Below are positions 9,473 through 64,000 of a stretch of DNA of 64,000 nucleotides, piece by piece. A program made the position numbers and the translations under genes. The stretch covers positions 96,001-160,000 of the IMG/VR virus record IMGVR_UViG_3300035137_000026. The stretch is one strand, 5' to 3'. This DNA comes from a virus. How positions within the stretch are numbered: position 1 is the stretch's first letter; the number at the start of each line of letters is the position of its first letter. The notes below the pieces were generated by a model, which was given only the letters and a program-made list of their open reading frames with translations, had not been told where the DNA came from and searched no databases.

Positions 9473-9912
9473 TGGCTCAGATTTACGATAAGGTCGATTG
9501 CTTTTGGACCTCTCGAGGCGACATGATGATCGGTGGCAAGGGGGACATCCTCACCACAGAGTTTGATCCACTTCGTTCGCTTGTACAGGAAATTCAGACA
9601 CGCATTGAATCAGATCAGGGAGACTGGGTTGTCTTTCCAGCGACTGGCACCAATCTGCGAGACTATGTCGGAGAAGCAAATAACCCTTATGTAGCTGAAG
9701 CTATTAAGACTAGGATCCACGGAGCACTTACTAGAGACGGCTTCATTAACAACCGTGATATAAACATACAGTATATGCCTATTGATCGTGACAAGTTGCT
9801 TGTTCGGCTCACTATCACAGTGGCACCTACTGCCTTGAACAATAATTCTCAGACATTAACACTGAATTCGATATACAATTATTCAGATAACAATGTATAC
9901 TTTTTTGCATAG
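9472..9912 (+). CDS. Baseplate wedge subunit, gp25/GpW-like
   Basis: SLVQEIQTRIESDQGDWVVFPATGTNLRDYVGE and IKTRIHGALTRD match the gp25-like pattern; directly precedes baseplate J. Confidence 0.75.
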   Translation: MAQIYDKVDCFWTSRGDMMIGGKGDILTTEFDPLRSLVQEIQTRIESDQGDWVVFPATGTNLRDYVGEANNPYVAEAIKTRIHGALTRDGFINNRDINIQYMPIDRDKLLVRLTITVAPTALNNNSQTLTLNSIYNYSDNNVYFFA

Positions 9913-9923
9913 GAGTGTAGTCA

Positions 9924-11177
9924 ATGCCATTTTTTCCACGTGAAGAGAAAGACATAGTCTCTGAAGCATTACAGAGAATGAGTCGCTCTACTAATATCAC
10001 TCAGCTGGCTCCGGGTGGTAAGGCGAGATTCTTCCTTACAACCGTTGCTCGAGAGCAGGCCCGTCAGCAGGCTCTATTCGATGCCAATTTACTTCAACCA
10101 TACATCAAGTATTCTGAAGGTAAGTTCTTAGACTTCTTTGGTGACATGCTCAATCTTCCTCGGGTAGAGGCGACACACGCAGGAGCAGCCAACGAGAACT
10201 TTATGTTCTATGTACAGAGTGGTCGGTTTACTGATTTAAATTCAGGCTCACCATTTACTGTTCCTGTTGGTACGGTGGTCGGAACAGTTCCGTTTGACGG
10301 CACTACCGTTACTCCAGGTCTTGAAGTTCAGGATACTATTGAGTACAGAACTACAGAGTCTGTGGTGTGTGAACCGACAGCCTCTTATGTGTATGCTCCA
10401 GTTAGGGCCACAGTAGAAGGTGCTTATGCTTCTGTGCCTCGTAATGCGCTGACACAACACGGCTTTGATGGCTATGCACTGGCCGGCACCAACCTCCTGA
10501 AATGTACTAACAAATATGCAATTGATAATGGTGTAGATAGAGAGAGCAATGAGTCTTATCGCTATAGGTTGGCCAATATCTTTACGGCTCGGAGTCAAGC
10601 AATGTATGTCAGTATTCGTCTGGCAGCGTTGAGTATTGCAGGAGTAGCAGATGTTGTTATGGTGAATGCAGAACAGGGGCCTGGCACGTTTGCCTTATAT
10701 ATTCGCAGCATTACGCCATCTGTTAGTCCAGAGCTGGTGACTGCAGTATCTACGGCTGTGAATGAAGTGGTTGCTTATGGTATCCGTCCATTTATTTCGG
10801 CACCTAGAACTCTAGGTATGGAGATGGTTGCTGCGGTGAACTGGTCTCCTCGAGCAAGCAAAGAAGAGATTGCAATCGGTTATACAAATATGCGGAATAT
10901 AGTTGAAGAAACCATCAACGAACTAGATATTGGAGAGGCATTAAATTTGACGGACTTGATTGTCGCAATGCTAGACGTTGCTCCGAAGGCAAATAGGATT
11001 GGTCAGAATATGGTGAACACATTTGAAGAAGTATATGTACATCGATCTAATCCGACTGCTGAGAGCGTGACCACACGCAATCTTGTTTTCTCTGATTATA
11101 TTGAGCCGCTATACAATGAAAGAATTCTACTAGAAACATCTACCCGCTATCGTGGTATTCAGTTCATAACATTCTAA
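9924..11177 (+). CDS. Baseplate J-like wedge protein
   Basis: FLDFFGDMLNLPR, TVPVGTVV, PVRATVEGAYASV, NGVDRESNESYRYRL, AALSIAGVADV are typical baseplate-J motifs. Confidence 0.85.
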   Translation: MPFFPREEKDIVSEALQRMSRSTNITQLAPGGKARFFLTTVAREQARQQALFDANLLQPYIKYSEGKFLDFFGDMLNLPRVEATHAGAANENFMFYVQSGRFTDLNSGSPFTVPVGTVVGTVPFDGTTVTPGLEVQDTIEYRTTESVVCEPTASYVYAPVRATVEGAYASVPRNALTQHGFDGYALAGTNLLKCTNKYAIDNGVDRESNESYRYRLANIFTARSQAMYVSIRLAALSIAGVADVVMVNAEQGPGTFALYIRSITPSVSPELVTAVSTAVNEVVAYGIRPFISAPRTLGMEMVAAVNWSPRASKEEIAIGYTNMRNIVEETINELDIGEALNLTDLIVAMLDVAPKANRIGQNMVNTFEEVYVHRSNPTAESVTTRNLVFSDYIEPLYNERILLETSTRYRGIQFITF

Positions 11178-11187
11178 GGAGTCTGCT

Positions 11188-12837
11188 ATGGCAACATTAG
11201 GCACCTGGCCCCAGGATATATATTACCTGTCGTGGATGACACAGAGGCTAACCAACCGTGCGCCAGATTGGACTCATGCACGCAGATGGTCTTGGTCTGT
11301 ATTCCAGCAGATGTTGAATCCCACAGCTGCAGATCTAGAGCGTGTAAACAAGCAGTTGGTTGAAGAGCGAAATAATATTTATCTCAGTGCCACCAATATA
11401 AACCTGATTGACAGACTCTACTTTGTTGAGCTTGGTGTCGGCATGGAGTTTTCTTATTCAGATGGTGGAGATGGAATCATAGTCTTCGACACTCCTGCGG
11501 TATATGTTGACATAGAAGATACTGAGCATCAGATTACGATTGCCAAAGATAATGATATTGAATCTCTCTGTTACACAGCGGTACCATCTCGAATTGAAGA
11601 CGGAGAGATGGTTTGTTCGTATCTTGAGGTAATTCCACGGACAGAAGTTTCTGAGCTTGGTGACGTAGCCCCTAATTCTTTGCCAATTCCAGGCCATCTG
11701 TATGTCACGCTGCGCAACAATAATACTTGGCAGTATGAGGTTGTTAACAAATACTTCTATCCAAAGATCCACATCCGAGGGACTACTCGCAAGGGTGTAG
11801 AGATGGAAGAAGCTGTTCCTCTTAGATATAACGGTACTTTTAAGACGATTAATGAGTGGGATGAGGTAACCGAGGTTTTTGTTAGCTATCTTGACGCCGA
11901 AGCCGAGATCACAGTTGAGGTTCTTCCATTCGACCGGGATACACAACTGGACACACACAACCTTGTTGTGCCAGCTACCGGAATAGAATCCTGGCGATTT
12001 GTGCGCCTTGAAGAGAAGATATGGGGTAGTGCTTTAGTATCAGAAGGCTTCACGGTGAGCAGCTTTGATGTTATCCGTAAAGGCTTTGATACTCTCGACC
12101 ACGAGTGGGAGATGGAACTTCATAATACTAGCGGCACGCCTGTAGATCTGACAGCTATGGTTCTCAAGCCCAATACAGACTATATGCTAGCTATCGATGA
12201 TAACTATCTGTATGTCTACAACACAAAGCTTCCATACCCAGATCTGACAGTACTGGGTTCAGAGAGTGCAGATACCAAGATGGATCTGTGGTCTGACAGA
12301 TGGATTTATGCCAGAGGTGATTCTGTAAGAATCTTTACTGATATTCTAGATGTAAGTGTGGTGCCCTGGCGAGTCAGATGGAGTGTTGTTGACCCAGATG
12401 GTCAAGAATACTATTTACTAGCTAATGGCTCTAAGGTCTTAACTGACAGCGGTGTGGATGCTTGGATTGGCAATACTCGCTGGGAGTACGGAACTTGGAA
12501 AGAGATATATATGGATTTTCTAGTTGAGCAAACTGGAGTTCATGTAGTCACCCTCGAGACACTCTATGCTGACGCCGATAAACAAGGAAACAATGTTACT
12601 TTGACTACGAAGTTTCTTTACTATGTTCCATCAGCCACTCCAGAGAATGTTATTGAGCTTCCTAATGCATTAAAGAATGCGACAGATATAGGCTTTGATT
12701 CTGATGGCAAACTCTGGTTCTCAACTGGCGATGATATTCTGCTGGCCGATCTATACTACGACTACTTTATGGTGGACTATGAGCTGAATAGAGTTTGGTT
12801 GCGGGAGAATTACTCTTCTGTTAGGGTGGTACTATGA
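11188..12837 (+). CDS. Baseplate/tail structural protein
   Basis: 549 aa, acidic and beta-rich, follows baseplate J; RBS AAGGAG. Confidence 0.5.
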   Translation: MATLGTWPQDIYYLSWMTQRLTNRAPDWTHARRWSWSVFQQMLNPTAADLERVNKQLVEERNNIYLSATNINLIDRLYFVELGVGMEFSYSDGGDGIIVFDTPAVYVDIEDTEHQITIAKDNDIESLCYTAVPSRIEDGEMVCSYLEVIPRTEVSELGDVAPNSLPIPGHLYVTLRNNNTWQYEVVNKYFYPKIHIRGTTRKGVEMEEAVPLRYNGTFKTINEWDEVTEVFVSYLDAEAEITVEVLPFDRDTQLDTHNLVVPATGIESWRFVRLEEKIWGSALVSEGFTVSSFDVIRKGFDTLDHEWEMELHNTSGTPVDLTAMVLKPNTDYMLAIDDNYLYVYNTKLPYPDLTVLGSESADTKMDLWSDRWIYARGDSVRIFTDILDVSVVPWRVRWSVVDPDGQEYYLLANGSKVLTDSGVDAWIGNTRWEYGTWKEIYMDFLVEQTGVHVVTLETLYADADKQGNNVTLTTKFLYYVPSATPENVIELPNALKNATDIGFDSDGKLWFSTGDDILLADLYYDYFMVDYELNRVWLRENYSSVRVVL

Positions 12838-43777: not shown

Positions 43778-44355
43778 TTTTGACTCCTCCAGTTTAATGT
43801 CTCTTGCAAGTCAGACAGCATCGTAGCAACTGTTCTTCTGTCTATTTTTAGTAACTTAGCAAGTCCTTGAGCTGTGAGCTGCCTCTGATCAGCTGCAAGT
43901 ATCATATATATAAGATATTTTTCGCTTCTTGTAAAGCATTTTCCTACATATCTGTCTTCCCATAGGATATTTGGGACGGTCCAATAGAACTCCTCATCCA
44001 GGGCATACTCACCACCAGTATCAACGAGACCACTAGGCTCCTCTAATGGACACATGTACTTTTCAACTCTGGAGAGCATGTCGGCTACCCGTCTAGGTAT
44101 CTGAGCCTCTAGGTAAGGCACAATAGAACTAGTATACTTCTTGTGCTCTCTAAACAGCTGTTCACAAAGCATAAACAACTCTGATTCAGCTTCAGCTGCC
44201 AGCAACCCCTTCTTCATGAGAGACCTCTTAGCCCAGCCTAACAGAGGCCTAAGCAATATATAGAATGCATAGACCCTGTCCTGCTGGCTAGTCTCAGGAG
44301 TGTAGAATATGGCTCTCTCGTATTTACGAAAGAGGTGTTTGCGGCGTAGCTTCAT
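43774..44355 (-). CDS. Putative sigma-factor-like protein with a C-terminal HTH
   Basis: AESELFMLCEQLF...SSIVPYLEAQIPRRVADMLSR resembles region 2; LTAQGLAKLLKIDRRTVATML is an HTH like region 4. Confidence 0.45.
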   Translation of the reverse strand: MKLRRKHLFRKYERAIFYTPETSQQDRVYAFYILLRPLLGWAKRSLMKKGLLAAEAESELFMLCEQLFREHKKYTSSIVPYLEAQIPRRVADMLSRVEKYMCPLEEPSGLVDTGGEYALDEEFYWTVPNILWEDRYVGKCFTRSEKYLIYMILAADQRQLTAQGLAKLLKIDRRTVATMLSDLQETLNWRSQK

Positions 44356-47162
44356 TCGACTACTGATGGGCCGATCGCTGGATGTTGGTACTCCGGAAGG
44401 AATCTCTCGGCGTGGCCGTCATACATAGCTGGCAATCTGTCGTTGAAGGCTCTTAAGATCTCTAGAGCACAGCCTCTGATGATTGGGTGAGCTGGCTTAT
44501 CACATCTCATATTGAAAACGTGCATCCACTCTCTTAGGTTGGCGGATATAACAATCTCAGACTTAAGACCAATAGGTAACACGGATCTAGCAATCTGAGC
44601 CTTGACACCCATGTCGATAAGCTTCATGTAGTGCTGCTCACAGTGGCGCATGGCAGCTTCCCACTCGTCTTGCTGCTCGGGTGTCATACCAGGCTGCTTA
44701 ACAACTGTAATCTCAGCATCGAACTTGCCTCTGGAGTAATTACAATACCTTGTAGACTCCTGTGCAAAGCTAGCAATCCTGTGACGTACTAGCTCGTGAG
44801 TGTTTCCAGACCAAAATGCTTTGCCATTTCGTCTAACATATAGTGTCCCATTGGGGACTGTAACGCAACGAATCTTGCCCTTGTAATGTTTCTTAGACCA
44901 GTGTTTCTTATTAAATAGATGTTCGTTAGTCCTATCGGTTACAGACACAATGTACTGGATTACTTTGTTGGTGATGGTATTCCCATTCTTCATTTCTCGT
45001 GACTGGCCTCGCCTGTCGTCGGTTCTTATAGAGGCACATCGCCCACCCTTCATAAATAGCTCTTGTAGGTCCCCAGCAAATCCATAGCTAGCTGTATATA
45101 CAACAGTATGGCCGTTCTCTTTATGAATGTTACCGTCTCCAGCCACGACGCCTTCCAAGAATGCTCTAATGTAGTTTGAGTTAGCATGTTTAATCCAGGT
45201 TGGACATCTGCCAGTATATGTTTTCTTCTGGTCTCTAGGGAACCACTTTCTAAGAAACTTATATAGCTCAGTGTTGTTTATTCGAAAACCGTCAGGTTTC
45301 TCTTGAAACTTCCATCCTAATCCGCTTAGTACTTTCTTAATATATCGTCTTCCAGATTCTTTAGTCTGCGAGATAGTTACTCGTCCACCAGTGTCTTTAC
45401 TCTTCCATAATGAACCATCAGTGATCCATATACCCATAAATCTAGCAAAGTCTAGTTTGTGTATTTGTGGAAAGAGATAAGCATATGGAGAGTCTTTACG
45501 AAAGCAGTTCTCCCCTATGTCTCGGAATAGCCCTCTAAGAAATTTTACCCGCCGCCCATAGATCTCTTCTGCTCTACTAATTTTCCAATTTTTGTCTTTC
45601 CTTGAATCGTAGTGAAACCAGAACATTCTGTGATTCGGAGTAACTGCAAAGTCTACAATGGTAGACTTGCCGTAGATAAGTTCGCCATCCCAATCTTCTT
45701 CTGTATAATCTAATCTTTTCTGGTACTCTGCGCCTTCTGTCTCAGTATTCATTGTTAAAAACAAATCATCATCTGTTGTGTCTTCAAATTTCTTCCAGCC
45801 ATCATAGGTTAGGACTTCTGTCTGATCGTCATAACATAGTCCTCGGTCGGCGCTAATACGAGCTGAGGCCATTGCATGCTCAAGCATCGCATGGTGGCCC
45901 CTGTCCCTAAGCATCCTAATGAACTTAGGAGCAGACTCCTCTGTGATCTTGTCCTCTGACTTATAACAGTTTCCGATCCACATCGACTTTCCATTATCTC
46001 TGATGCAGATGATACCATTGTCAGTAGAGGGGCAATACACCTTGCCACTATACTCTTCTTCAATCAACTGGTCTGGCTTAATGATCCAAGAATCTCGTTG
46101 GGATTCTTCAGCATAATATATCCCATTACAGTTTCTCCAGTGTTCTGAATCCATGAACCCAACTGATGCGTTCTTTCCTGTTAGTATCCATAATTCCTGA
46201 ACTTGATCGACTAGGGCCTTGTTGATTGACAGATATCTTTCCGTCCTCGTTGTATTTCCAGAACCGTCACCCATATATAGAATGTCTAGAAAATAACTGA
46301 TCATTTCAGAAGATAGCTCCCTAACCAAGTTTGGTATCCTCTTATTCTCAGAATAGCGACCACAATGTTCTTCGACCCACTCTACAAAAGGTCTACCCTC
46401 CCAGATTCTAAAAGTATGGATGTGTAATCTCCTAGAATCTGGTATCACTGAGAACTGGAGACCTAGTTCGATTAAGGCTTCTTCTATCTTATAATACAGC
46501 TGTTCGTGTATACTCTGTGTAATTCCAATGTAAGATCCAGACCCTTTTGGCTTTCCGATGTGGCCTTCGGCAATGTAGGCTGCAAGAATAGTTAGGAAAT
46601 CTTGATTAACTTCATATGTCTTGCCTTTAATAGTTGTCTCATGTGATGGGTTTCTAGAGACGTATTTATAGTCATTTGTCTGAATATATTTTGTACAATT
46701 GTCTTCTCGTTGCAGTATGCTATCCTTGAAATATTTTGGAACCCACCATCCGTAATTGCGCTTATCATCTTTTAAACAACGTGCTTCCACAAAGCCATAT
46801 GGCTTAATAGTATCCTGGTGATGTGCCTTGCATGCAAACATTCTATGGTCGGGCGTTACTCTAAATTTAATATTTCTATGTCTTGAAGATAGCAAGCTCC
46901 CGCTAAAATCTTTTGCTACCATCTTTGATGGTTGGTATTGGAGCTGTTTCGTGTCACTGTTAAAGGTCAGCACTTTGTTAGTCGGCTCTATGGCTGAAGC
47001 TTCCTTCCATCCTTCGTCTGTTAGTATTTCAGTGTCCGGATGCAGGCACGTGCGCCCAACTCTCTCCAGCCACTGCTCTATAGTGGCGTATCCCTCTGGA
47101 ATGTGGAATACAATCTCATCAACCTTTGGTTCTGCTACTCTCATTTTGAACTCCATACCCAT
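44352..47162 (-). CDS. thyX: Flavin-dependent thymidylate synthase ThyX precursor with two inteins
   Basis: Exteins join to ERVGRT|CYKSE...GHHAMLEH...DRGL|THELVRHRIASFAQESTRY (RHR-X7-S motif); mature protein about 231 aa. Confidence 0.92.
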   Translation of the reverse strand: MGMEFKMRVAEPKVDEIVFHIPEGYATIEQWLERVGRTCLHPDTEILTDEGWKEASAIEPTNKVLTFNSDTKQLQYQPSKMVAKDFSGSLLSSRHRNIKFRVTPDHRMFACKAHHQDTIKPYGFVEARCLKDDKRNYGWWVPKYFKDSILQREDNCTKYIQTNDYKYVSRNPSHETTIKGKTYEVNQDFLTILAAYIAEGHIGKPKGSGSYIGITQSIHEQLYYKIEEALIELGLQFSVIPDSRRLHIHTFRIWEGRPFVEWVEEHCGRYSENKRIPNLVRELSSEMISYFLDILYMGDGSGNTTRTERYLSINKALVDQVQELWILTGKNASVGFMDSEHWRNCNGIYYAEESQRDSWIIKPDQLIEEEYSGKVYCPSTDNGIICIRDNGKSMWIGNCYKSEDKITEESAPKFIRMLRDRGHHAMLEHAMASARISADRGLCYDDQTEVLTYDGWKKFEDTTDDDLFLTMNTETEGAEYQKRLDYTEEDWDGELIYGKSTIVDFAVTPNHRMFWFHYDSRKDKNWKISRAEEIYGRRVKFLRGLFRDIGENCFRKDSPYAYLFPQIHKLDFARFMGIWITDGSLWKSKDTGGRVTISQTKESGRRYIKKVLSGLGWKFQEKPDGFRINNTELYKFLRKWFPRDQKKTYTGRCPTWIKHANSNYIRAFLEGVVAGDGNIHKENGHTVVYTASYGFAGDLQELFMKGGRCASIRTDDRRGQSREMKNGNTITNKVIQYIVSVTDRTNEHLFNKKHWSKKHYKGKIRCVTVPNGTLYVRRNGKAFWSGNTHELVRHRIASFAQESTRYCNYSRGKFDAEITVVKQPGMTPEQQDEWEAAMRHCEQHYMKLIDMGVKAQIARSVLPIGLKSEIVISANLREWMHVFNMRCDKPAHPIIRGCALEILRAFNDRLPAMYDGHAERFLPEYQHPAIGPSVVE
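44802..45836 (-). mobile_element. ThyX intein 2 (345 aa) with a LAGLIDADG endonuclease
   Basis: Starts CYDDQTEVLT, block B TPNH, MGIWITDGS and FLEGVVAGDGN motifs, ends WSGN followed by Thr +1. Confidence 0.9.
45969..47048 (-). mobile_element. ThyX intein 1 (360 aa) with a LAGLIDADG endonuclease
   Basis: Starts CLHPDTEILT, block B TPDH, AAYIAEGH and FLDILYMGDGS motifs, ends WIGN followed by Cys +1. Confidence 0.9.
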
Positions 47163-55884: not shown

Positions 55885-56832
55885 TTAGTGCATAATCCGT
55901 GGTGTGTCTTTCGGGGTTACACTGTTGCGGTCTCTCATCCACTTACCACAATCCTTACAGCGCAGTCTCTTGTACTTATATAGCTTGGTATATGAGTATC
56001 CTCTGTACTCTAGATTAGTACCACCACATGCTGGGCAGTGCAGTATATCGTCATCAATAAGTAGGTTCCAGTTCGGCATACTGGCTGCCAGTGGCATCAG
56101 TTTTTCTGTAATGTCTCTTTGGGTGCGAACATCCTGTACGTTGTATTCTGCAATAATTTCCATAGCCTCTACGTCGTGTGCTTTAGCTCGTCTCCAGATA
56201 TACAGTGGCACCTCAGACTTCTGTTCGTCGCATCTAAATGCTCGAGCGATAGTCTTCAGCTTGTTGTTGTTTAGCCTCAGGTTCTTCTTAGCAATTCTCC
56301 AGGTATCAATATGTACTGGCTTGGGGATTACTGGAAGCCCATGCATGAGACACCGTGTCTGAATGAACGGGAAGTCAAATCCTGGAGAGAAGTGTCCGAT
56401 TAGCACATCTGCCTCTTCCATGATCTTAACTACGTCTTTCAGTAAGTATAGGTCCCTTTTCTCGACTGGTAGCTCATCCCAACCAGAATAGTCCCACATC
56501 CGCATGACTACTGGCTCTGGCTCGTCGTGCCACCAGTAGCCGAAGCAGATCATCTCTCCAAATTCGGCAGACAGATCGGTGGCTTCAATGTCGAAGTACA
56601 TAATCTTAGCCTTGCTTATTTGGGTGGCTATTGATGATCCGTATGGTAACTTAGGAGGCTTATTGCGCTTGTCCTTGTGCCGGCGAATAATACCCTGAAC
56701 GGCCTTAGTAGTCCTTTGTGGGAATCCTTTGCTAGCCAGTATCTCTGCGATCTCTCGTGCTAGCTTATTGCCAGCGTGCTTGATGACCAACTGTCTCTCT
56801 TTGTCGGTCCATTTATCATGTGTGTCTTCCAT
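55885..56832 (-). CDS. RNase H-like 3'-5' exonuclease (RNase_H_2/DnaQ type) with an N-terminal HTH and a C-terminal Zn ribbon
   Basis: YFDIEAT, GHFSPGFDFPF, HIDT, YNVQDV (DEDD); CPAC...CKDC; WTDKE...EIA HTH. Confidence 0.8.
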   Translation of the reverse strand: MEDTHDKWTDKERQLVIKHAGNKLAREIAEILASKGFPQRTTKAVQGIIRRHKDKRNKPPKLPYGSSIATQISKAKIMYFDIEATDLSAEFGEMICFGYWWHDEPEPVVMRMWDYSGWDELPVEKRDLYLLKDVVKIMEEADVLIGHFSPGFDFPFIQTRCLMHGLPVIPKPVHIDTWRIAKKNLRLNNNKLKTIARAFRCDEQKSEVPLYIWRRAKAHDVEAMEIIAEYNVQDVRTQRDITEKLMPLAASMPNWNLLIDDDILHCPACGGTNLEYRGYSYTKLYKYKRLRCKDCGKWMRDRNSVTPKDTPRIMH

Positions 56833-56836
56833 GTGT

Positions 56837-58939
56837 CTATCTCATCCTTTTCATATTTGTTGCGACAGCCAATGCTTGCTGATAGGCCGTGTGGCTAACA
56901 TCCTCACGGGGGATGAACTCTACCAGTGTGCCGTCTTGTACCGTGAGTGTAATCGGGTGAATGTGTCCAGCCTCATTGTCCTCAGTTACTAGCTCAAGAT
57001 CATTGATAATCACCTTGATGAGTGGTGGAGAATCATCACTTTCAGGTGCCGTAACCCTAACACTCCCACTAACAATATTGACTGTGTCTTCTTCGAGGCA
57101 CTTTTCTAGCTTTCTCCACTGTCGGGGGAAGATGGTTGCTTCCATTCGGCCCGACTTGTCCTCGATGTTGACTACGGCCATGTTCATGCCACTCTTGGTC
57201 CTAATCTTTCTGATTGCTGACACAACCACTGGGATATTGATTGGCATCCCATCTTCAATTCCTTCTCCCTCCTTTAGCGCAGCAACGGTGTGTCGTGCGA
57301 GTCTAGAAAGACCAGGGTACTCGTCCATAGGATGTCCCGTCAAGTAAAATCCTAGCGTCTGACGCTCGAGCGCTAGCCTGTCTTGTCTTGAACCCTCATC
57401 TATCTCATTCATCTCCGGTAGTTGTGGCTCTTCCGGAATTTTGTATGGCTTTGGTTCTTTAAGCCGTTTTGGTTCTCTTCCCTTGGGGTTCTTCTTCCAC
57501 TTCTTGATTTTCTCGTCTCTTATGCTTTGCTTTACATCAAAGTCTATCTGGCAGGCCTTCTCCTTCTCCTTGATTTTGGCTACACGTTCTACCCATTTAG
57601 GATGTTTCTCATAATACTTATACAGCTCGTCCAGGTTTTTTACCAGTTGTCCTCTGGAGAATTCTGTTATTTCTCCAAGAGCACCACATGCTGCGAGAGC
57701 TTTAACGGTCCCCTTGTTGATCTTCCGTTGGACCATCTCTTCTAGAGACTTGAATGGCCCGTTGGTGTTCCTCTCTTCCACGAGTGCATCACAAGCTTTT
57801 GGTCCTAATCCTTTGATTCCGGCCAGTCCAAATATTATCGTTCCATTGTTGATGGTGAACATTCCCTCTGAGATATTTACATCAGGTGGCTGGATTGGAA
57901 TCTCTGCCTCTCTGCAGGCATAGATATACTTCACCAGATCCTCCTGATCCTTGAAGGATGCATTTAATAAGGCGGTATAGAACTCTGTAGGGTAATGAGT
58001 TCTTAGCCATGCTGTCTGGTACGAGATAATTGAGTAGGCAACACTGTGACTGTTACAAGTCACAATACCCTGGTCTGTTACGAAGGTATGGTTTGGCGCT
58101 GCCATTTCTACATCGTACACATTCTCCTTCCCGCAGGGTTCTATGCTACGGATGGCTACAGGTTGAGTATACAAACCACGTTCTCCCATCCTAGTCCGCC
58201 CCATGGTATAGTATGCTTTCTTATGGCAGGAGACACAGTACGTTGCGAGATTATCTAGGCTGTTGTTGCTGTGGTTTCTGTCTATGTGATGTATCTCGAG
58301 ACGCTGGTGTGTATGTTGGCAGCACTTGGCTTCACATTGGTTGGCCTTCTGGGAATTTAAAGCATATGGTATCAGGTTGCTATTTGAGTGGTGCCTTGGG
58401 TCATTAGCGGAACCTTTGTTAGTAAATCTGTATGTGGTATCTTGAGGTACATGCCCTGAGTTTATGTATAGGCGATCTTTGGGCTTTAGCTCTGCAGTAG
58501 TCTTCTCTCCATTAGTGGTCGGAAACTTGTGGTTCTCAGTGACCACAATACTGCGTCCATCTTCGGTTGTAATTCGGAATACAGATCTGGTACCTGCATA
58601 TCTAATGTCTACGATTCTATTCTTCCGTAACTTGCCGTCTTGACACATAGAGAATGCCGTCCCATATCCATATCGTCTATATCTGTAAGCTAGCGACGGT
58701 TTACCAATATTTCTAGCATATTCGGGATCGTTTGCTAGTTTGTACATCTGTTCGATGGTGGCCCGAAACTTATTTCTCTTCTGATGACCGACACGATATA
58801 ATGTTTCTTGCCCGCTTATGCATTTGTTGAAACAATTAGAGGCCACCGACCCGTTATTTAGAACAAAGTTGTGATCAGCCTCAAGGCCAATGTCGAACAC
58901 TTTCTGTTGGCCGAGGCTCTTACGGCTAATAATTTTCAT
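56837..58939 (-). CDS. dnaE: DNA polymerase III alpha (DnaE) C-terminal half: split intein C fragment, CFNK, HNH intein, C-extein
   Basis: CFNK|SHSVAYSIISYQTAWLRTHYPTEFY, IQPPDVNIS, IIFGLAGIKGLG, ERQTLGFYLTGHP, and the OB fold TKSGMNMAVVNIEDKSG. Confidence 0.93.
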   Translation of the reverse strand: MKIISRKSLGQQKVFDIGLEADHNFVLNNGSVASNCFNKCISGQETLYRVGHQKRNKFRATIEQMYKLANDPEYARNIGKPSLAYRYRRYGYGTAFSMCQDGKLRKNRIVDIRYAGTRSVFRITTEDGRSIVVTENHKFPTTNGEKTTAELKPKDRLYINSGHVPQDTTYRFTNKGSANDPRHHSNSNLIPYALNSQKANQCEAKCCQHTHQRLEIHHIDRNHSNNSLDNLATYCVSCHKKAYYTMGRTRMGERGLYTQPVAIRSIEPCGKENVYDVEMAAPNHTFVTDQGIVTCNSHSVAYSIISYQTAWLRTHYPTEFYTALLNASFKDQEDLVKYIYACREAEIPIQPPDVNISEGMFTINNGTIIFGLAGIKGLGPKACDALVEERNTNGPFKSLEEMVQRKINKGTVKALAACGALGEITEFSRGQLVKNLDELYKYYEKHPKWVERVAKIKEKEKACQIDFDVKQSIRDEKIKKWKKNPKGREPKRLKEPKPYKIPEEPQLPEMNEIDEGSRQDRLALERQTLGFYLTGHPMDEYPGLSRLARHTVAALKEGEGIEDGMPINIPVVVSAIRKIRTKSGMNMAVVNIEDKSGRMEATIFPRQWRKLEKCLEEDTVNIVSGSVRVTAPESDDSPPLIKVIINDLELVTEDNEAGHIHPITLTVQDGTLVEFIPREDVSHTAYQQALAVATNMKRMR
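58052..58822 (-). mobile_element. Cis intein (257 aa) with an HNH endonuclease in DnaE
   Basis: Starts CISGQETL, block B TENH, HNH motif EIHHIDRNHSNNSLDNLATYCVSCH, block F VYDVEM, ends VTCN followed by Ser +1. Confidence 0.88.
58835..58939 (-). mobile_element. Split DnaE intein, C fragment (35 aa)
   Basis: MKIISRKSLGQQKVFDIGLEADHNFVLNNGSVASN followed by CFNK; closely resembles the cyanobacterial DnaE IntC as recalled. Confidence 0.93.
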
Positions 58940-58959
58940 GTATTTTCCTACTGGTATGC

Positions 58960-61707
58960 TCAGATGGCCCCTAGTGCCTCGCTATATATCTCAAGGTTGG
59001 CGAAAACCCCGCCTAGTTGGTCATTGCCAGACAAGAATTGACATATGTCAATTCGGTCTAGATCATCTGGTATAACAGCAGATGTGTCTTGCGCCTTGTC
59101 TGCGTCAACCATTAGTCGGACATCATCAGGTTTCCAATGTATGTATCCACGGTGTTGATTGCCGTCACAGATATTGCCATCTACCGGTAACTGCACTGAG
59201 TATGCCCCGCCAACCCGTATGTAAGTTGACAGCCTGTTACTAGCTGAAAGGTTCATGAATGTCCATATCGCATCATTGCTTGATCCACCATCGCTAAACA
59301 CAAGAAATTGCCGATAAACACTTGGGGTAAAGTCTGGCAGCATAAAGTCAAATCCACAAGTATTTCTACCTCCGCTTCCGACTCCACCAAGATTTCCATC
59401 ATCGCTCTTAAATCTTAGTTGATCCTTAGATCTCGTCTCAGCTGAAGCTCCGGTAATTATTGGTGATGTAGCATAATCATAGTTCTCACATTGTGCGTAC
59501 CAAATATAAATATCTTCTGTTACACCATCCCCTGCAAATGTGACGTCGTTATCATTTTCTGCGACAAACACACTCCAATAATGTGAAGCAGCAGTACCAG
59601 TAATTTTTAGTACCACCAAAACAAAACCATCACCCAAGTCCTCGATGTATGGCAGAGCACCATTGCCGTTTGTTCCTATAGCAACATTAGCCAAGTCGAA
59701 GTGTGCATATGCTCCTGTTATGGAGTCAACTACCTTAATCCACTCCTTGTCACCTGCTTTAAAGACTGCGCTGAATGTCCAATCGTCAGCTGTAAGCGTT
59801 ATATTTGTCCGAACGCTATGAGTATCGTTATCTACACTACAGACAACTGCATCCATTTGAATTCCTGGGCCGGGTCCATCAATGGAATCAGAGTTGATAG
59901 TACATCGTGTTTTGGTCCATACGGCATTATTAAAGTCATCGCAATACGTAAATAGATTCTGTGACTGAGGTTCTGATAGTCCTCCCTTGATGATTCTCTT
60001 CTGTGTCGGGCGGGCCACACACCGCAACGCTTCTTCTCCAGCTAGATAATATCGTCGTGGTGGAACCTTCTCTAAGGTAATCTTATCAAATTCTACGTAT
60101 CCGTCAGTACTTGCAAGTGCATATAGGAAAGGACCTCGTACAGCAGAAGCGGTATATGATACATCAAAGTACTGCCAGTCTGTGCTGGTGGTAAGATTGA
60201 AGCTAGCACTCCCAATGTTAGATACCCGAGGAGTGGTCACTCCATCGCTTCTACCGAATCCTGTTATTCTGTATCTCTCACCTGGCTCACATTGATGTAG
60301 TTGCCGTGCAAATGGGTTGGTTGTCCCATCATATGCAATTCTAAGGCACCTAGAACCATCTACTGGATCACTTTGCTTAGTGAGTACTGCATCATTCTGA
60401 GCATCCCATCTAGCAACACCGGGAAGCTCCATATCTCCATCCTCTAGATATATACGCTTTATTACGATGTTATCAAACTCTGAGTATCCAGAAGCACCCC
60501 AGTTATAAAGTCTTATATCGCCTGCGCTTGTTACGAATACCTCGTCTAACTCTTGCCACTCGTTGCTGATTGTGCCAGTCCAAATTGAGGTACCACCCCA
60601 GAGGATTCTAGGGTACCCGGAGCTGCCGTCGCCACGGGCTCTACCAGTGATACGGTATGTCTTGTTTGGTGTGAGAACCTGTTGATAGGCATACGCATTC
60701 ATTGTACCATCATAGGCTACACGTAGTACCTGTCTTACTCCATATGACTCCTTAGTCAAAATAGCATCATTCCAAGGAGTCCAGTCGGAAGTTGACTCTC
60801 TTTCCATGTCACCGTCATTAACTACATTTCCGTCCGGCTCTGCTTTGTCTACATATGCAGGATAGTTTCTGGTCTTTAGGATTGGTGCAGCAGTGCCTTT
60901 GGCTAGCTGGGGCCACTGACCCCAAAACTTTGCTGATAGTTTTGCCGCTAGATCATCTTGTACATGTGTATCAAGCCAATCTTGGCCAATCCAGGTAGCG
61001 GCATAGAGTATATCTCCATCAAATGGTTGATTAGCTACTCTTGAACCAAAGTGGAATTCATTAGCGCCATTCAGAGTGGAGTGATATGATGATACATCAA
61101 CTGCCGAACCGCTAGGTAAGCCGTTAACATATATCTGAGCATATCCATTTCTATCTACAAATACCCATGCATCGTAATACCTACCTGTAATTAGGGTGTC
61201 TGAATATATGCCTATATAGCCACTTGAGTCATGTAAGACAACACGCAGTCTATGTGATGATGTGAATGTCCATTCCCAACCAACATTGCCAGTTCTAGTT
61301 GCTAAGATAGATCGATGTGCGGAATCATCAGTACAATTGAAAATTATTCCTGATACTATATCCTCGGTCGATACCTGACCAAATGTTGCATTCCCAGCCT
61401 TATAAAAATCGCTTCCTGCTCCGGAGAAGCGTACAGAACGGTCCATTGGCCCAAGTGCTATAGATCCTTGCCGATACTCTGGCTGCGTGCCACCAGTTTG
61501 TCTAGTAAGAATTTCCCCATATTTCCAAGGAGCAAGATCAGTACTATTGGCATCTATTCCTCTATACCTGTATAGAGGAGATTTGGTTTGTCCATTGATA
61601 GTTAGAAACTCAGACAGTCGGGCTATGCCATTGATGGGCATGTCTGGCTTATCTTTGTACAGCTCAAATGTCTTGAAGGCTGATGGTCTGGAACTACGTA
61701 TGATCAT
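58960..61707 (-). CDS. Lectin-rich fibre/spike-like protein (LamG + two CBM4/9-like repeats + head-fibre-like domain + LamG-like end)
   Basis: 915 aa; QIYVNG...FDGDI (LamG); two DGDME...W...YRITG..R.DG...EFD.I repeats; GGLSEPQSQNLFTY...ITGASAETRSKD. Confidence 0.7.
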   Translation of the reverse strand: MIIRSSRPSAFKTFELYKDKPDMPINGIARLSEFLTINGQTKSPLYRYRGIDANSTDLAPWKYGEILTRQTGGTQPEYRQGSIALGPMDRSVRFSGAGSDFYKAGNATFGQVSTEDIVSGIIFNCTDDSAHRSILATRTGNVGWEWTFTSSHRLRVVLHDSSGYIGIYSDTLITGRYYDAWVFVDRNGYAQIYVNGLPSGSAVDVSSYHSTLNGANEFHFGSRVANQPFDGDILYAATWIGQDWLDTHVQDDLAAKLSAKFWGQWPQLAKGTAAPILKTRNYPAYVDKAEPDGNVVNDGDMERESTSDWTPWNDAILTKESYGVRQVLRVAYDGTMNAYAYQQVLTPNKTYRITGRARGDGSSGYPRILWGGTSIWTGTISNEWQELDEVFVTSAGDIRLYNWGASGYSEFDNIVIKRIYLEDGDMELPGVARWDAQNDAVLTKQSDPVDGSRCLRIAYDGTTNPFARQLHQCEPGERYRITGFGRSDGVTTPRVSNIGSASFNLTTSTDWQYFDVSYTASAVRGPFLYALASTDGYVEFDKITLEKVPPRRYYLAGEEALRCVARPTQKRIIKGGLSEPQSQNLFTYCDDFNNAVWTKTRCTINSDSIDGPGPGIQMDAVVCSVDNDTHSVRTNITLTADDWTFSAVFKAGDKEWIKVVDSITGAYAHFDLANVAIGTNGNGALPYIEDLGDGFVLVVLKITGTAASHYWSVFVAENDNDVTFAGDGVTEDIYIWYAQCENYDYATSPIITGASAETRSKDQLRFKSDDGNLGGVGSGGRNTCGFDFMLPDFTPSVYRQFLVFSDGGSSNDAIWTFMNLSASNRLSTYIRVGGAYSVQLPVDGNICDGNQHRGYIHWKPDDVRLMVDADKAQDTSAVIPDDLDRIDICQFLSGNDQLGGVFANLEIYSEALGAI

Positions 61708-61708
61708 T

Positions 61709-62392
61709 TTATTCTAGAACGAAAGTGCAGCTAACAGAGAGATCTTCGGCATCATTATTTGTTCCGTTAGCATCTGTTGTGATTTCTATGTCGTCATCGA
61801 TGGAGACTGCATAATCTGTATCTATATCTACTGTGGTATGCACCCAAGATGTAGAAACGTCTCGTCCTTCGTTAGAATTGGTAGTACAAACTTGAGTTCC
61901 ACCAATAGAGACGTTAACTCTTGGTTGACTGGCTCCGGTATCTGCTGAAACTACACGATGAGATATTCTGGCTAGATATGCATTTCCTAGTCTCCACTGT
62001 ATATATGTTGCTAAGTCATTTAGGACAAGATCTGTATCGGCGGCATCGGCAAATAGGCCAGGTATATTTATATCTAGCTGCTGAACACGAGAAGTAGGAC
62101 CAAACTGGATCTCGTCATCACTGACACCCAATGGATATCCAGCTATTGTTACAGTACCACTAGAATAGTCAGTAATTATTCCGTAATACCAAGTACCGCC
62201 AGATTGGCGATAACGTATTGGACGACCGACCTTAAACTTCAGCTGATTATCTGAGTCGTCTGTGACAGTGAAGCTTGATCCGGATACTCGAGTGAACGAG
62301 TTGCCACCGAACCATGCTTCTGATATAGAGAAATCACTAACAATTTCATGATAATCCAGCTCTTTAGAAAATGGATTATACTTATAGGGCAT
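61709..62392 (-). CDS. Short fibre/spike-like structural protein
   Basis: 227 aa; MPYKYNPF N-terminus and RVSGSSFTV...FKVGRPIRY resemble phage fibre modules; RBS GGAGG. Confidence 0.5.
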   Translation of the reverse strand: MPYKYNPFSKELDYHEIVSDFSISEAWFGGNSFTRVSGSSFTVTDDSDNQLKFKVGRPIRYRQSGGTWYYGIITDYSSGTVTIAGYPLGVSDDEIQFGPTSRVQQLDINIPGLFADAADTDLVLNDLATYIQWRLGNAYLARISHRVVSADTGASQPRVNVSIGGTQVCTTNSNEGRDVSTSWVHTTVDIDTDYAVSIDDDIEITTDANGTNNDAEDLSVSCTFVLE

Positions 62393-62414
62393 TCACCGCC
62401 ACCTCCACAGTTAA

Positions 62415-64000
62415 TTATAGTATTTCTGCCAGTTCATGTATAGTATACAGGCTATGATTCTCTTTGTATATGGTGTCAATATCTAGCATTGTGCCATCAA
62501 TTGTAAGGAACTTATGATCCTTGGTGGCTTGAATAACAGTCCCGTCCTCGAGGGTGTATTCAAAGGTTTCCTGCTCGCCATTATCGTGCCACTGGCTGAT
62601 GGGTTGTATGGTAATAAGGCCGTTGCTGATTGAGTAGACATTACATTCCAGTTTATTACCTACAATATCCCCAATTCTCATGGGCCCAAACTCTACTGTG
62701 AGCACCTCAGTTTCGTATGTCAGACAATATTTGGCGAAACCGGCAATATCGTCAAATAGCTTAGTAGCAATGCTCTCAGAGATACCATTTGTTATGCATC
62801 CGTTGACGAATTTCTCCCGCTCGGGCTCCATCTTCTCCCGGATCTTCTTGCCAATGATCTGCCTCATATTGTCGGCTTCGGGTAATGTATATCCAGCCAA
62901 ATCTGTACAGATCTTCATAATTTGCTCCTGGAAGCAATTATGGGAGACCACTCCATCAGCTATAAAGTACGGAAAGCTCTGGTCCTGCATCTGGATATCA
63001 TAACATTCTGCCAGTTTGGGTTCTGCTGTAAGGACGTCGAGGTCTTGTGCCTTGTATTCTACATATACTGGAAACGTATCTTGCAGGTATGAAATTCTGT
63101 ATGCTTCTTTATATACTGACAAGAAGCCTGGTATCCTCCAGACGTAGGAGTTGTTTCCCTGTGGTCTATACATCCCACTGCCATGAAGGCTACGTTGTAA
63201 CTGTTTCTTGTGAGATGGAGACTTATAGAATAGTTGCGAGCTTTTAATTAGCTGTCTTAATAGCTTTCTAGCTATAGGTGGATAATAACTATTTCCTATC
63301 CTGCACTTGTAATACTTACCGGGTAGCTTAGGAGCAATGAGGCTACAAAATGCATATCTGTCTACAATATATATGTAATTATCGGAGATACGATATGCTA
63401 TCTTCAGCGAACGCAATAAATCTCCAATGTCTAACAATAGCTTGTGAGAAACAGACCGATAGTAAATTAAGTTCTTTCCGTAGTGGCCGTCTGCGTCCCA
63501 TATTCCACGAAGTAGCTCTACCCTTGATCTTTCATTGAAGTCTCGGAACTGTGTGGGAAGTGTTTTGGTATGTGATTTACTTATCCATTGACCGACTCCA
63601 TACTGTTTATCTAGAAAATTAGTTGGTGGAGATTTTCTAGGAGCAGTATTAAATTTCGAATAAGCATACCATGCTCTTGTGTTTTGATAATATTTGGGCT
63701 CGCCGCCAAAAACTCTTGATATCTCTTCAGAAATCCATTTAGCCTGTTCCTCTGTGCTACATGTAATGGTTTTAGTCCCTGGCTTCATTTCTCCGTTTCC
63801 GATGAGAAGCCCCAATATGTAAGCCTTATCTGAAATGTCGATCAGGTTACTATTAGTTGCCCACTGACTGTATAATACAGATCCACATCGGTCGATTTGC
63901 CCAGATAATTGAGTAGATAAATTGCACTTTAGGTCTTTTGTAGCACAGTCACCATCTGTTGTAAGCCAAACGTGATCATCTGATGATTGAATTTCTTGCT
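62415..64000 (-). CDS. dnaE: DNA polymerase III alpha (DnaE) N-terminal half, truncated at the window edge: LAGLIDADG intein, 70-aa extein, split intein N fragment
   Basis: The frame is open to 64000. Extein CFQEQIMKICTDLAGYTLPEADNMRQIIGKK...LFDDIAGFAKY is the DnaE finger region. Confidence 0.9.
   Translation of the reverse strand, partial: QEIQSSDDHVWLTTDGDCATKDLKCNLSTQLSGQIDRCGSVLYSQWATNSNLIDISDKAYILGLLIGNGEMKPGTKTITCSTEEQAKWISEEISRVFGGEPKYYQNTRAWYAYSKFNTAPRKSPPTNFLDKQYGVGQWISKSHTKTLPTQFRDFNERSRVELLRGIWDADGHYGKNLIYYRSVSHKLLLDIGDLLRSLKIAYRISDNYIYIVDRYAFCSLIAPKLPGKYYKCRIGNSYYPPIARKLLRQLIKSSQLFYKSPSHKKQLQRSLHGSGMYRPQGNNSYVWRIPGFLSVYKEAYRISYLQDTFPVYVEYKAQDLDVLTAEPKLAECYDIQMQDQSFPYFIADGVVSHNCFQEQIMKICTDLAGYTLPEADNMRQIIGKKIREKMEPEREKFVNGCITNGISESIATKLFDDIAGFAKYCLTYETEVLTVEFGPMRIGDIVGNKLECNVYSISNGLITIQPISQWHDNGEQETFEYTLEDGTVIQATKDHKFLTIDGTMLDIDTIYKENHSLYTIHELAEIL
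62418..62726 (-). mobile_element. Split DnaE intein, N fragment (103 aa)
   Basis: CLTYETEVLTVEFG...QWHDNGEQETFEYTLEDG..I.ATKDHKFLT followed by a stop; near-colinear with the cyanobacterial DnaE IntN as recalled. Confidence 0.93.
62937..64000 (-). mobile_element. Cis intein with a LAGLIDADG endonuclease in DnaE (N-terminal part beyond the window)
   Basis: Block B SSDDH, AYILGLLIGNG and LLRGIWDADGH motifs, block F CYDIQM, ends VSHN followed by Cys +1. Confidence 0.88.

Follow-up and report, generated by a model that had tools for sequence, protein, structure and literature searches.

A split intein of the cyanobacterial DnaE family in the dnaE gene of an uncultured 198-kb phage

Among the natural tools for protein trans-splicing, the split DnaE intein of cyanobacteria is the main one, and how the gene for an essential polymerase was divided has been a standing question since 1998-2003. 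The same question is raised by a 64,000-nucleotide stretch of DNA (the window), comprising bases 96001-160000 of the 197,730-bp IMG/VR virus record IMGVR_UViG_3300035137_000026 (an uncultured phage), in which dnaE is divided between the two halves of an intein. An original prediction, made from the letters of the window alone, held that this is a virally carried member of the cyanobacterial family and that it bears on how the cyanobacterial split arose or spread. Is the element such an intein, is its carrier a phage, and what do its relatives say about the origin of the split?

Anatomy and carrier of the split intein

The dnaE fragment that bears the N-terminal intein half (IntN) at its C-terminal end is a 950-aa open reading frame (ORF) extending past the end of the window; the neighbouring DNA was fetched as L002, in which position x is window position 56000+x. 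IntN, with Cys1 and the block B motif TKDH, opens with CLTYETEV directly after the extein end GFAKY. The C-terminal half (IntC) stands first in a 700-aa ORF (56837-58939, minus strand) and is followed by CFNK, and the IntN and IntC genes are separated by 3.4 kb on the same strand (Table 1). The halves had been described in the original prediction as FAKY/CLTYETEV (the slash marks the junction), 103 aa and a stop, and as a 35-aa IntC with its own ATG and the junction ASN/CFNK; the ORF listing and coordinates bear this out (62418-62726 and 58835-58939, respectively), and the predicted span of 58835-62726 is exact, running from the last base of IntC to the first base of IntN.

IntN matched the Npu DnaE IntN chain 4qfq_A with an E-value of 3.8e-36 (58 identities over the 100 aligned positions printed), and IntC matched Ssp 1zde (5.3e-12) and Npu chains (1e-11 to 2e-10). 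These matches go far past what chance would give. Identity to the Npu/Ssp DnaE inteins is ∼58% for IntN and ∼63% for IntC, as had been judged by eye when more than half of the residues were said to match Npu in both fragments. The element has Cys1, TKDH, DIG, HNF, a terminal Asn and Cys+1, each of them invariant in alignments of the phage relatives. The insertion site, GFAKY/C...ASN/CFNK, is the same as in cyanobacterial DnaE-N proteins (FAEY/C...) and corresponds to PolIII-alpha insertion point a, FA(E/K)Y/C...N/CFNK (Novikova 2016, PMC4760082). The split point of the family (IntN of ∼100-123 aa and IntC of 35-36 aa, in separate genes) is matched by the 103 aa plus stop and the 35 aa from an ATG seen here. 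The net charge is -12 for IntN and +4 for the first 15 residues of IntC, the acidic/basic polarity that has been described for DnaE split inteins (PMC2677866). Comparison with the sister phage L003 gave pN 0.16 and pS 0.87 (saturated) for IntN and a comparable pN of 0.10, with synonymous sites saturated, for the adjacent extein; the intein is under purifying selection and has therefore been kept as a working coding sequence. By its site with the CFN context, its split point and its catalytic residues, the element belongs, as predicted, to the family of the cyanobacterial split DnaE inteins, and it is probably functional in trans-splicing.

The DNA that carries the split intein is that of a phage and not of a cyanobacterial chromosome, and the intein lies in the phage's only replicative DNA polymerase. 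The source record has direct terminal repeats and a completeness estimate of 100%, the genes of the window include a baseplate wedge protein, virion structural proteins and tail proteins, and the whole phage genome has one dnaE, flanked by a module of replication genes (a polymerase exonuclease subunit and a primase-helicase). No nucleotide (megablast) match to the 8-kb region was found among GenBank phage genomes, nor any tblastn match to IntN at E 1e-3, and no deposited phage exceeds 41% identity to the dnaE extein. No close cultured phages of the 198-kb phage were found, and no tRNA genes were found in the 64-kb window. The genome is also rich in other inteins: a ThyX gene contains LAGLIDADG intein sequence (Thy1 + LAGLIDADG_3; window 44352-47162, minus strand), and a class II ribonucleotide reductase (L174, G000 170804-173971) has a LAGLIDADG intein which L003 is without.

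Sister phages, exteins and the wider family

The same split was found in syntenic sister phages from other assemblies, the gaps of which hold different genes. In L003 (NCBI, 31.5 kb) dnaE-N ends in IntN and is followed by 645-aa and 1092-aa tail-spike-like genes; in L177 (JGI, 144.7 kb) the gap consists of 450-aa and 105-aa genes followed by IntC-CFNK-SHS; the contig of P0160 (39 kb) has a single 167-aa gene and L012 (IMG/VR) a single Laminin_G_3 gene. A syntenic sister, carrying P0162, represents the empty-site allele: its dnaE is unbroken (1126 aa) and no fibre genes are found at that place. The occurrence of the same split with different gap genes in independent sister contigs, together with the empty-site sister, rules out a chimeric assembly, one of the two ways in which the prediction could have failed. 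The other, a cyanobacterial chromosome taken for a phage, is contradicted by the complete virus record and by an extein that falls in a phage clade.

No homing endonuclease was found between the halves in the window, and no remnant of the endonuclease of the relatives was found in the gap. The two gap genes are separated from the intein genes by spacers of 22 nt (from the IntN stop to the ATG of the 227-aa gene, containing a GGAGG ribosome-binding site) and 20 nt (from the stop of the 915-aa gene to the IntC ATG, containing AGGAAA). Neither spacer contained a terminator-like site, in a scan that itself performed no better than shuffles. As IntN-dnaE, the two gap genes and IntC-dnaE are co-directional and tightly packed, they are probably co-transcribed. 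The 227-aa gene had no family match. The gap genes vary among the sister phages, yet have a common N-terminal motif, MPY(K/R)YN.F, and the gaps of other phage lineages contain Laminin_G_3, collagen-repeat and depolymerase-like genes. The gap is in this sense a hypervariable slot (window:58960-62392; L003:12572-17805; L177:12540-14220).

The exteins tell a different story from the intein. The extein of the sister protein P0002 has ∼60 metagenomic clusters at 51-81% identity, most of them unbroken and intein-free (1107-1133 aa) and reading GFAxY-(S/G)FNK-(A/S)HS, and the next relatives after the phage clusters are diverse bacteria at 42-46% identity. Identity of the extein to cyanobacterial DnaE-N is only 35-40%, whereas IntN is 51-61% identical to cyanobacterial IntNs, which are 64-86% identical among themselves. 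This discordance indicates that the intein has moved horizontally between dnaE lineages. Extein trees, built from the PHP-palm and palm-finger regions of DnaE, contained four separate, well-supported DnaE lineages with a split intein at site a: cyanobacteria and the phage clades A, B (extein context GFADY) and C (L005 and L013). The phage DnaE clade of the window stands apart from cyanobacteria with support of 99-100, and within clade A the phage belongs to a terminal four-member split subclade among intein-free alleles. The element is best read as inserted into a lineage of phage DnaE that as a rule is unbroken. Four intein-free members of clade A (P0212, P0214, P0216 and P0221) have Y-CFN at the insertion site in place of the S or G of most alleles; an intein may have been lost precisely from these alleles, leaving a footprint, or they may be homing sites that are pre-adapted.

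We searched for further relatives of the intein at several scales. Among 1.84 billion representatives, 37 matches to IntN were found at E <=1e-10. Excluding short fragments, synthetic fusions and two in other proteins, the matches were in the cyanobacterial FAEY or the phage GFA(D/K)Y or GFSDY context and, where the protein end was present, a stop followed ∼95-115 residues after Cys1. No contiguous (unsplit) intein at site a was found among the best 150 IntN matches; non-terminal matches were considered as candidates and rejected, being synthetic fusions, other genes or other sites. A species-genome collection contained 534 relatives, of which the best 80 were cyanobacterial in every named record, with IntN identities of 55-63%. 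An exact-peptide scan of IMG/VR gave no match; an alignment-based scan found 90 relatives, some of them on contigs of 48-204 kb in which IntC lies 1.3 to 8.4 kb downstream. Same-site relatives thus occur in at least three phage DnaE lineages. The prediction had noted that its novelty would fall if identical arrangements were already catalogued in related phages: the arrangement is not unique, being found in many metagenomic and IMG/VR contigs, which are unannotated.

Three of the relatives retain a LAGLIDADG endonuclease. L005 has an IntN gene, a helix-turn-helix (HTH)-LAGLIDADG gene and an IntC gene in succession. In L013 (a 204-kb IMG/VR contig, 9497-12347) the frame of IntN continues, as a fusion, into an HTH-LAGLIDADG endonuclease, 53% identical to its L005 homologue, and IntC is in another frame. 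In both loci the end of the endonuclease and the start of IntC share the same overlap of 29 nt and the IntC frame is open for just 9-16 codons upstream of the IntC ATG, so their IntCs are real separate genes. Of all the forms, L013 comes closest to a contiguous bifunctional intein at site a. The gap of L008 holds cargo genes and a LAGLIDADG endonuclease. In this 189-kb metagenomic contig, the 135-aa P0159 (L008:14691-15098) consists of a site-a IntC, CFNK and the IntN of a second split intein (FNK/SH), and is followed by a LAGLIDADG gene and then by IntC2 and the remainder of dnaE; such a locus would trans-splice three pieces, the middle extein being of 4 residues. A further metagenomic protein, P0028 (355 aa), has a DnaE-type IntN (54% identical) near its N-terminus, no DnaE extein and ∼240 unrelated residues after it; this IntN may have been recruited or domesticated.

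In the IntN tree (57 rows, 100 columns) a branch with support of 96/92 separates 24 phage rows, including this phage, from L005, L013, P0039 and the full set of 30 cyanobacterial rows, and the phage branches are far longer and more diverse than the cyanobacterial ones. Rooting with other inteins was attempted and dropped, as the branches were too long to inform. The predicted relevance of the element to the origin of the cyanobacterial split is real, but the tree, on 100 columns, does not fix the direction of movement and leaves cyanobacterial monophyly unrejected (p-AU 0.40).

An interrupted polymerase gene and its interpretation

The dnaE gene as a whole consists of three ORFs and three inteins, one split and two contiguous (Table 1).

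Table 1. Features of the dnaE region, with window coordinates, from the upstream to the downstream end of the minus strand.
Position	Strand	Feature	Domains, matches and motifs
62937..64000	-	Intein 1, contiguous 411-aa LAGLIDADG intein, C-terminal three quarters	LAGLIDADG_3, Hint_2
62727..62936	-	DnaE extein island of 70 aa separating intein 1 from IntN	Ends GFAKY
62415..62726	-	IntN + TAA stop	IntN itself 62418-62726, 103 aa; stop 62415-62417
61709..62392	-	Gap gene 1, 227 aa	N-terminal MPYKYNPF
58960..61707	-	Gap gene 2, 915 aa, fibre/lectin-like	CBM_4_9 1.4e-6; C-terminal match phrog_5939 (PHROG tail protein) 7.5e-24
58835..58939	-	IntC, 35 aa, own ATG	Keeps DIG, HNF, terminal ASN
58823..58834	-	4-residue extein CFNK, between two inteins	Cys+1 of split intein
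58052..58822	-	Contiguous 257-aa HNH intein at FNK/SHS	Intein_splicing, HNH
56837..58051	-	Rest of DnaE C-extein + stop	HHH_6, OB-fold
55885..56832	-	DNA polymerase exonuclease subunit, next gene in operon	RNase_H_2 fold

Intein 1 starts past the window end, at window-equivalent 64169, at the site YGVM/CFQEQ, and ends VVSHN/C; this site is empty in L003 (TFQEQ). The HNH intein has Cys1 and TENH, ends in TCN before Ser+1, and is 54% identical to the same-site intein of P0201. The C-terminal part of dnaE with its IntC is 74% identical to the dnaE-C of L177, and the exonuclease subunit gene comes after dnaE in all of the sister phages. The FNK/SH site is a second hot spot, with split inteins in P0177, P0207 and P0211 and a contiguous HNH intein in P0201, and loci L022 and L023 have a split intein two residues further along (FANYGF/C). 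P0061 (494 aa) has a related split IntN at YQEQ/C of another phage-type DnaE, the site where the dnaE of the window has its contiguous LAGLIDADG intein.

Upstream, dnaE is broken once more, with no intein at the break. Part 1 (L002 9966-11195, 409 aa) contains the PHP domain and the start of the palm and diverges from its relatives right after FERFL; the first ∼90 residues of part 2 duplicate, in diverged form, DnaE residues ∼305-390; and the two parts are separated by a free-standing LAGLIDADG endonuclease gene, which has two motifs and is interrupted near its start by an in-frame stop. The region of this break, part 1 included, is L002:9165-11195 (window-equivalent 65165-67195, past the window end). 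At this position the sisters P0002 and P0160 are unbroken and the clade B phages L006 and L008 are broken at about the same place. A search of the dnaE region against Rfam, at E up to 1, gave no intron at the break. We considered an intron or a dead intein and rejected both, and the break is read as an endonuclease-associated fission with diverged duplication.

The explanation that best accounts for these data, and which we consider highly probable, is that the sole dnaE of the 198-kb phage would carry a functional, naturally split intein of the cyanobacterial type. In this case the acidic IntN (-12) and the basic N-terminal end of IntC would dock after translation to form one Hint domain, and trans-splicing at Cys1, Asn35 and Cys+1 would join ...GFAKY to CFNK..., restoring the FAxY-xFNK-SH motif of Pol III alpha. 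The two ordinary inteins would splice in cis, the LAGLIDADG intein 70 residues upstream of the junction and the HNH intein 4 residues downstream, in whatever order the three splicing events may follow, and the separately encoded PHP-domain fragment would join non-covalently. The split intein would most likely have arrived as a unit with a free-standing LAGLIDADG homing endonuclease, as in the related phages; the endonuclease would later have been lost and the gap would have become a variable slot for fibre genes. Some observations count against this explanation. With the HNH intein 4 residues past the junction, the split intein would have an unusual C-extein until the HNH intein leaves, and this closeness possibly interferes with split-intein splicing. 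Because of the upstream break, which is without an intein, the active polymerase would also depend on non-covalent assembly. Finally, promoter and terminator scans around the locus carry no information.

The upstream break also lends itself to another explanation, in which the halves dock without splicing and the polymerase is a non-covalent complex held together by the intein halves as by a clasp: as the PHP fragment is separated from the rest of the same gene without any intein, the polymerase would tolerate non-covalent assembly. However, such a clasp needs neither Cys1, nor the terminal Asn, nor Cys+1, and every splicing residue has been kept here and in all of the relatives, which makes this explanation quite unlikely. 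It is very unlikely that dnaE is decaying under selfish elements, with the split intein a relic and the phage using the host polymerase. Three inteins, a fission and a stop-interrupted endonuclease gene within one gene might suggest decay, but the frames are all open, there is strong purifying selection on both intein and extein, the layout has been kept across several phages at 59-80% amino-acid identity, and the accessory replication genes are intact.

Fibre-like genes are odd within a replication operon, and a chimeric join could in principle have put them into a contiguous intein or gene. This has been largely refuted and is highly improbable, as at least four independent assemblies have dnaE-N-IntN with its stop, gap genes and IntC-dnaE-C, the junctions have ribosome-binding sites and short spacers, and the N-terminal motif of the gap genes is common to different phages. 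All of the closest relatives of the intein among cells are cyanobacterial, which would be expected if the DNA were a cyanobacterial chromosome or a recently captured host dnaE. To this possibility we give practically no credence: the extein trees refute it, placing the extein inside a clade of phage DnaE that is well separated from cyanobacteria, the record, which has terminal repeats and virion genes, is that of a complete virus, and the best cyanobacterial IntN is only 63% identical. We therefore retain the explanation of a functional split intein in the phage polymerase.

Known systems and significance

The phage element has the site FAxY/CFNK, the split point and the catalytic residues in common with the split DnaE intein of cyanobacteria (Ssp PCC6803 and Npu; PDB 4qfq, 4kl5 and 1zde), as well as a non-His penultimate residue, an acidic IntN and a basic IntC head. 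It differs in that its host gene is of a phage DnaE lineage, its halves are 3.4 kb apart in one operon and not at distant chromosomal loci, its IntN is outside the cluster that holds all of the cyanobacterial inteins (branch 96/92 in the 100-column tree), and a second intein lies 4 residues past the junction. Several inteins in one dnaE, including a split one at site a, are also found in Trichodesmium erythraeum, whose DnaE has two contiguous inteins in addition to the split one (InBase); there, however, the gene is cellular and the halves are far apart and, to our knowledge, the extra inteins are not 4 residues from the split junction.

Insertion point a has been reported from cyanobacteria, where it is always split (Novikova 2016, PMC4760082). 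The fractured genes of Dassa 2009 (PMC2677866), gp41-1, NrdJ-1, IMPDH-1 and DnaE-1 to -3, resemble the phage locus in being phage-borne and in having both halves in one locus and on one strand, each with half an intein. However, they have inteins of other types at other sites, the three metagenomic DnaE loci included, in agreement with the original prediction that gp41, NrdJ and IMPDH are other families, and their endonucleases are GIY-YIG or Vsr-like, whereas the gap here contains fibre-like genes and no endonuclease. The same paper (PMC2677866) proposed a stepwise model of intein, endonuclease invasion, endonuclease loss and separation of the loci, in which step IV is the cyanobacterial state. 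The forms seen among the relatives fit steps IIa, II and III of this model, and the LAGLIDADG endonuclease of the phage relatives is one that Dassa 2009 (PMC2677866) predicted and did not observe. For the upstream break the analogue is a different one: as cited in PMC2677866, the nrdA of Aeromonas phage Aeh1 is split by the mobE endonuclease without an intein, so that there, too, a free-standing endonuclease gene lies between fragments that need non-covalent assembly. This likeness concerns the upstream break and not the split intein, and the endonuclease here is a LAGLIDADG one with an in-frame stop.

A full-text search of the literature, with subscription journals outside its coverage, found no paper on viral members at insertion point a. 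The split intein is part of a wider viral distribution, including endonuclease-bearing forms, that is apparently undescribed. A bolder proposal, which we put forward only tentatively and regard as doubtful, is that phage dnaE genes are the reservoir of the diversification of this intein family, that a fractured, LAGLIDADG-bearing phage allele was the mobile ancestor of the single cyanobacterial split dnaE, and that the gap is a cargo slot by which fibre (host-recognition) genes, propelled by homing, pass from one co-infecting phage to another.

Until now, the fractured-gene model of 2009 has been without intermediates from this intein family. The phage and its relatives supply them at the same site and within one family: an IntN-endonuclease fusion, a free-standing endonuclease, a form that has lost the endonuclease and whose gap is small or cargo-filled, and an empty site. 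With these intermediates at one site, the model becomes testable by phylogeny and by endonuclease and splicing assays. The relatives also form a pool of diverged Npu-like halves (40-70% identity), among which there may be fast or orthogonal ones, or ones that tolerate odd exteins like the 4-residue CFNK. The value of the phage intein lies, then, both in the question of origin and in its use as a source of new splicing parts.

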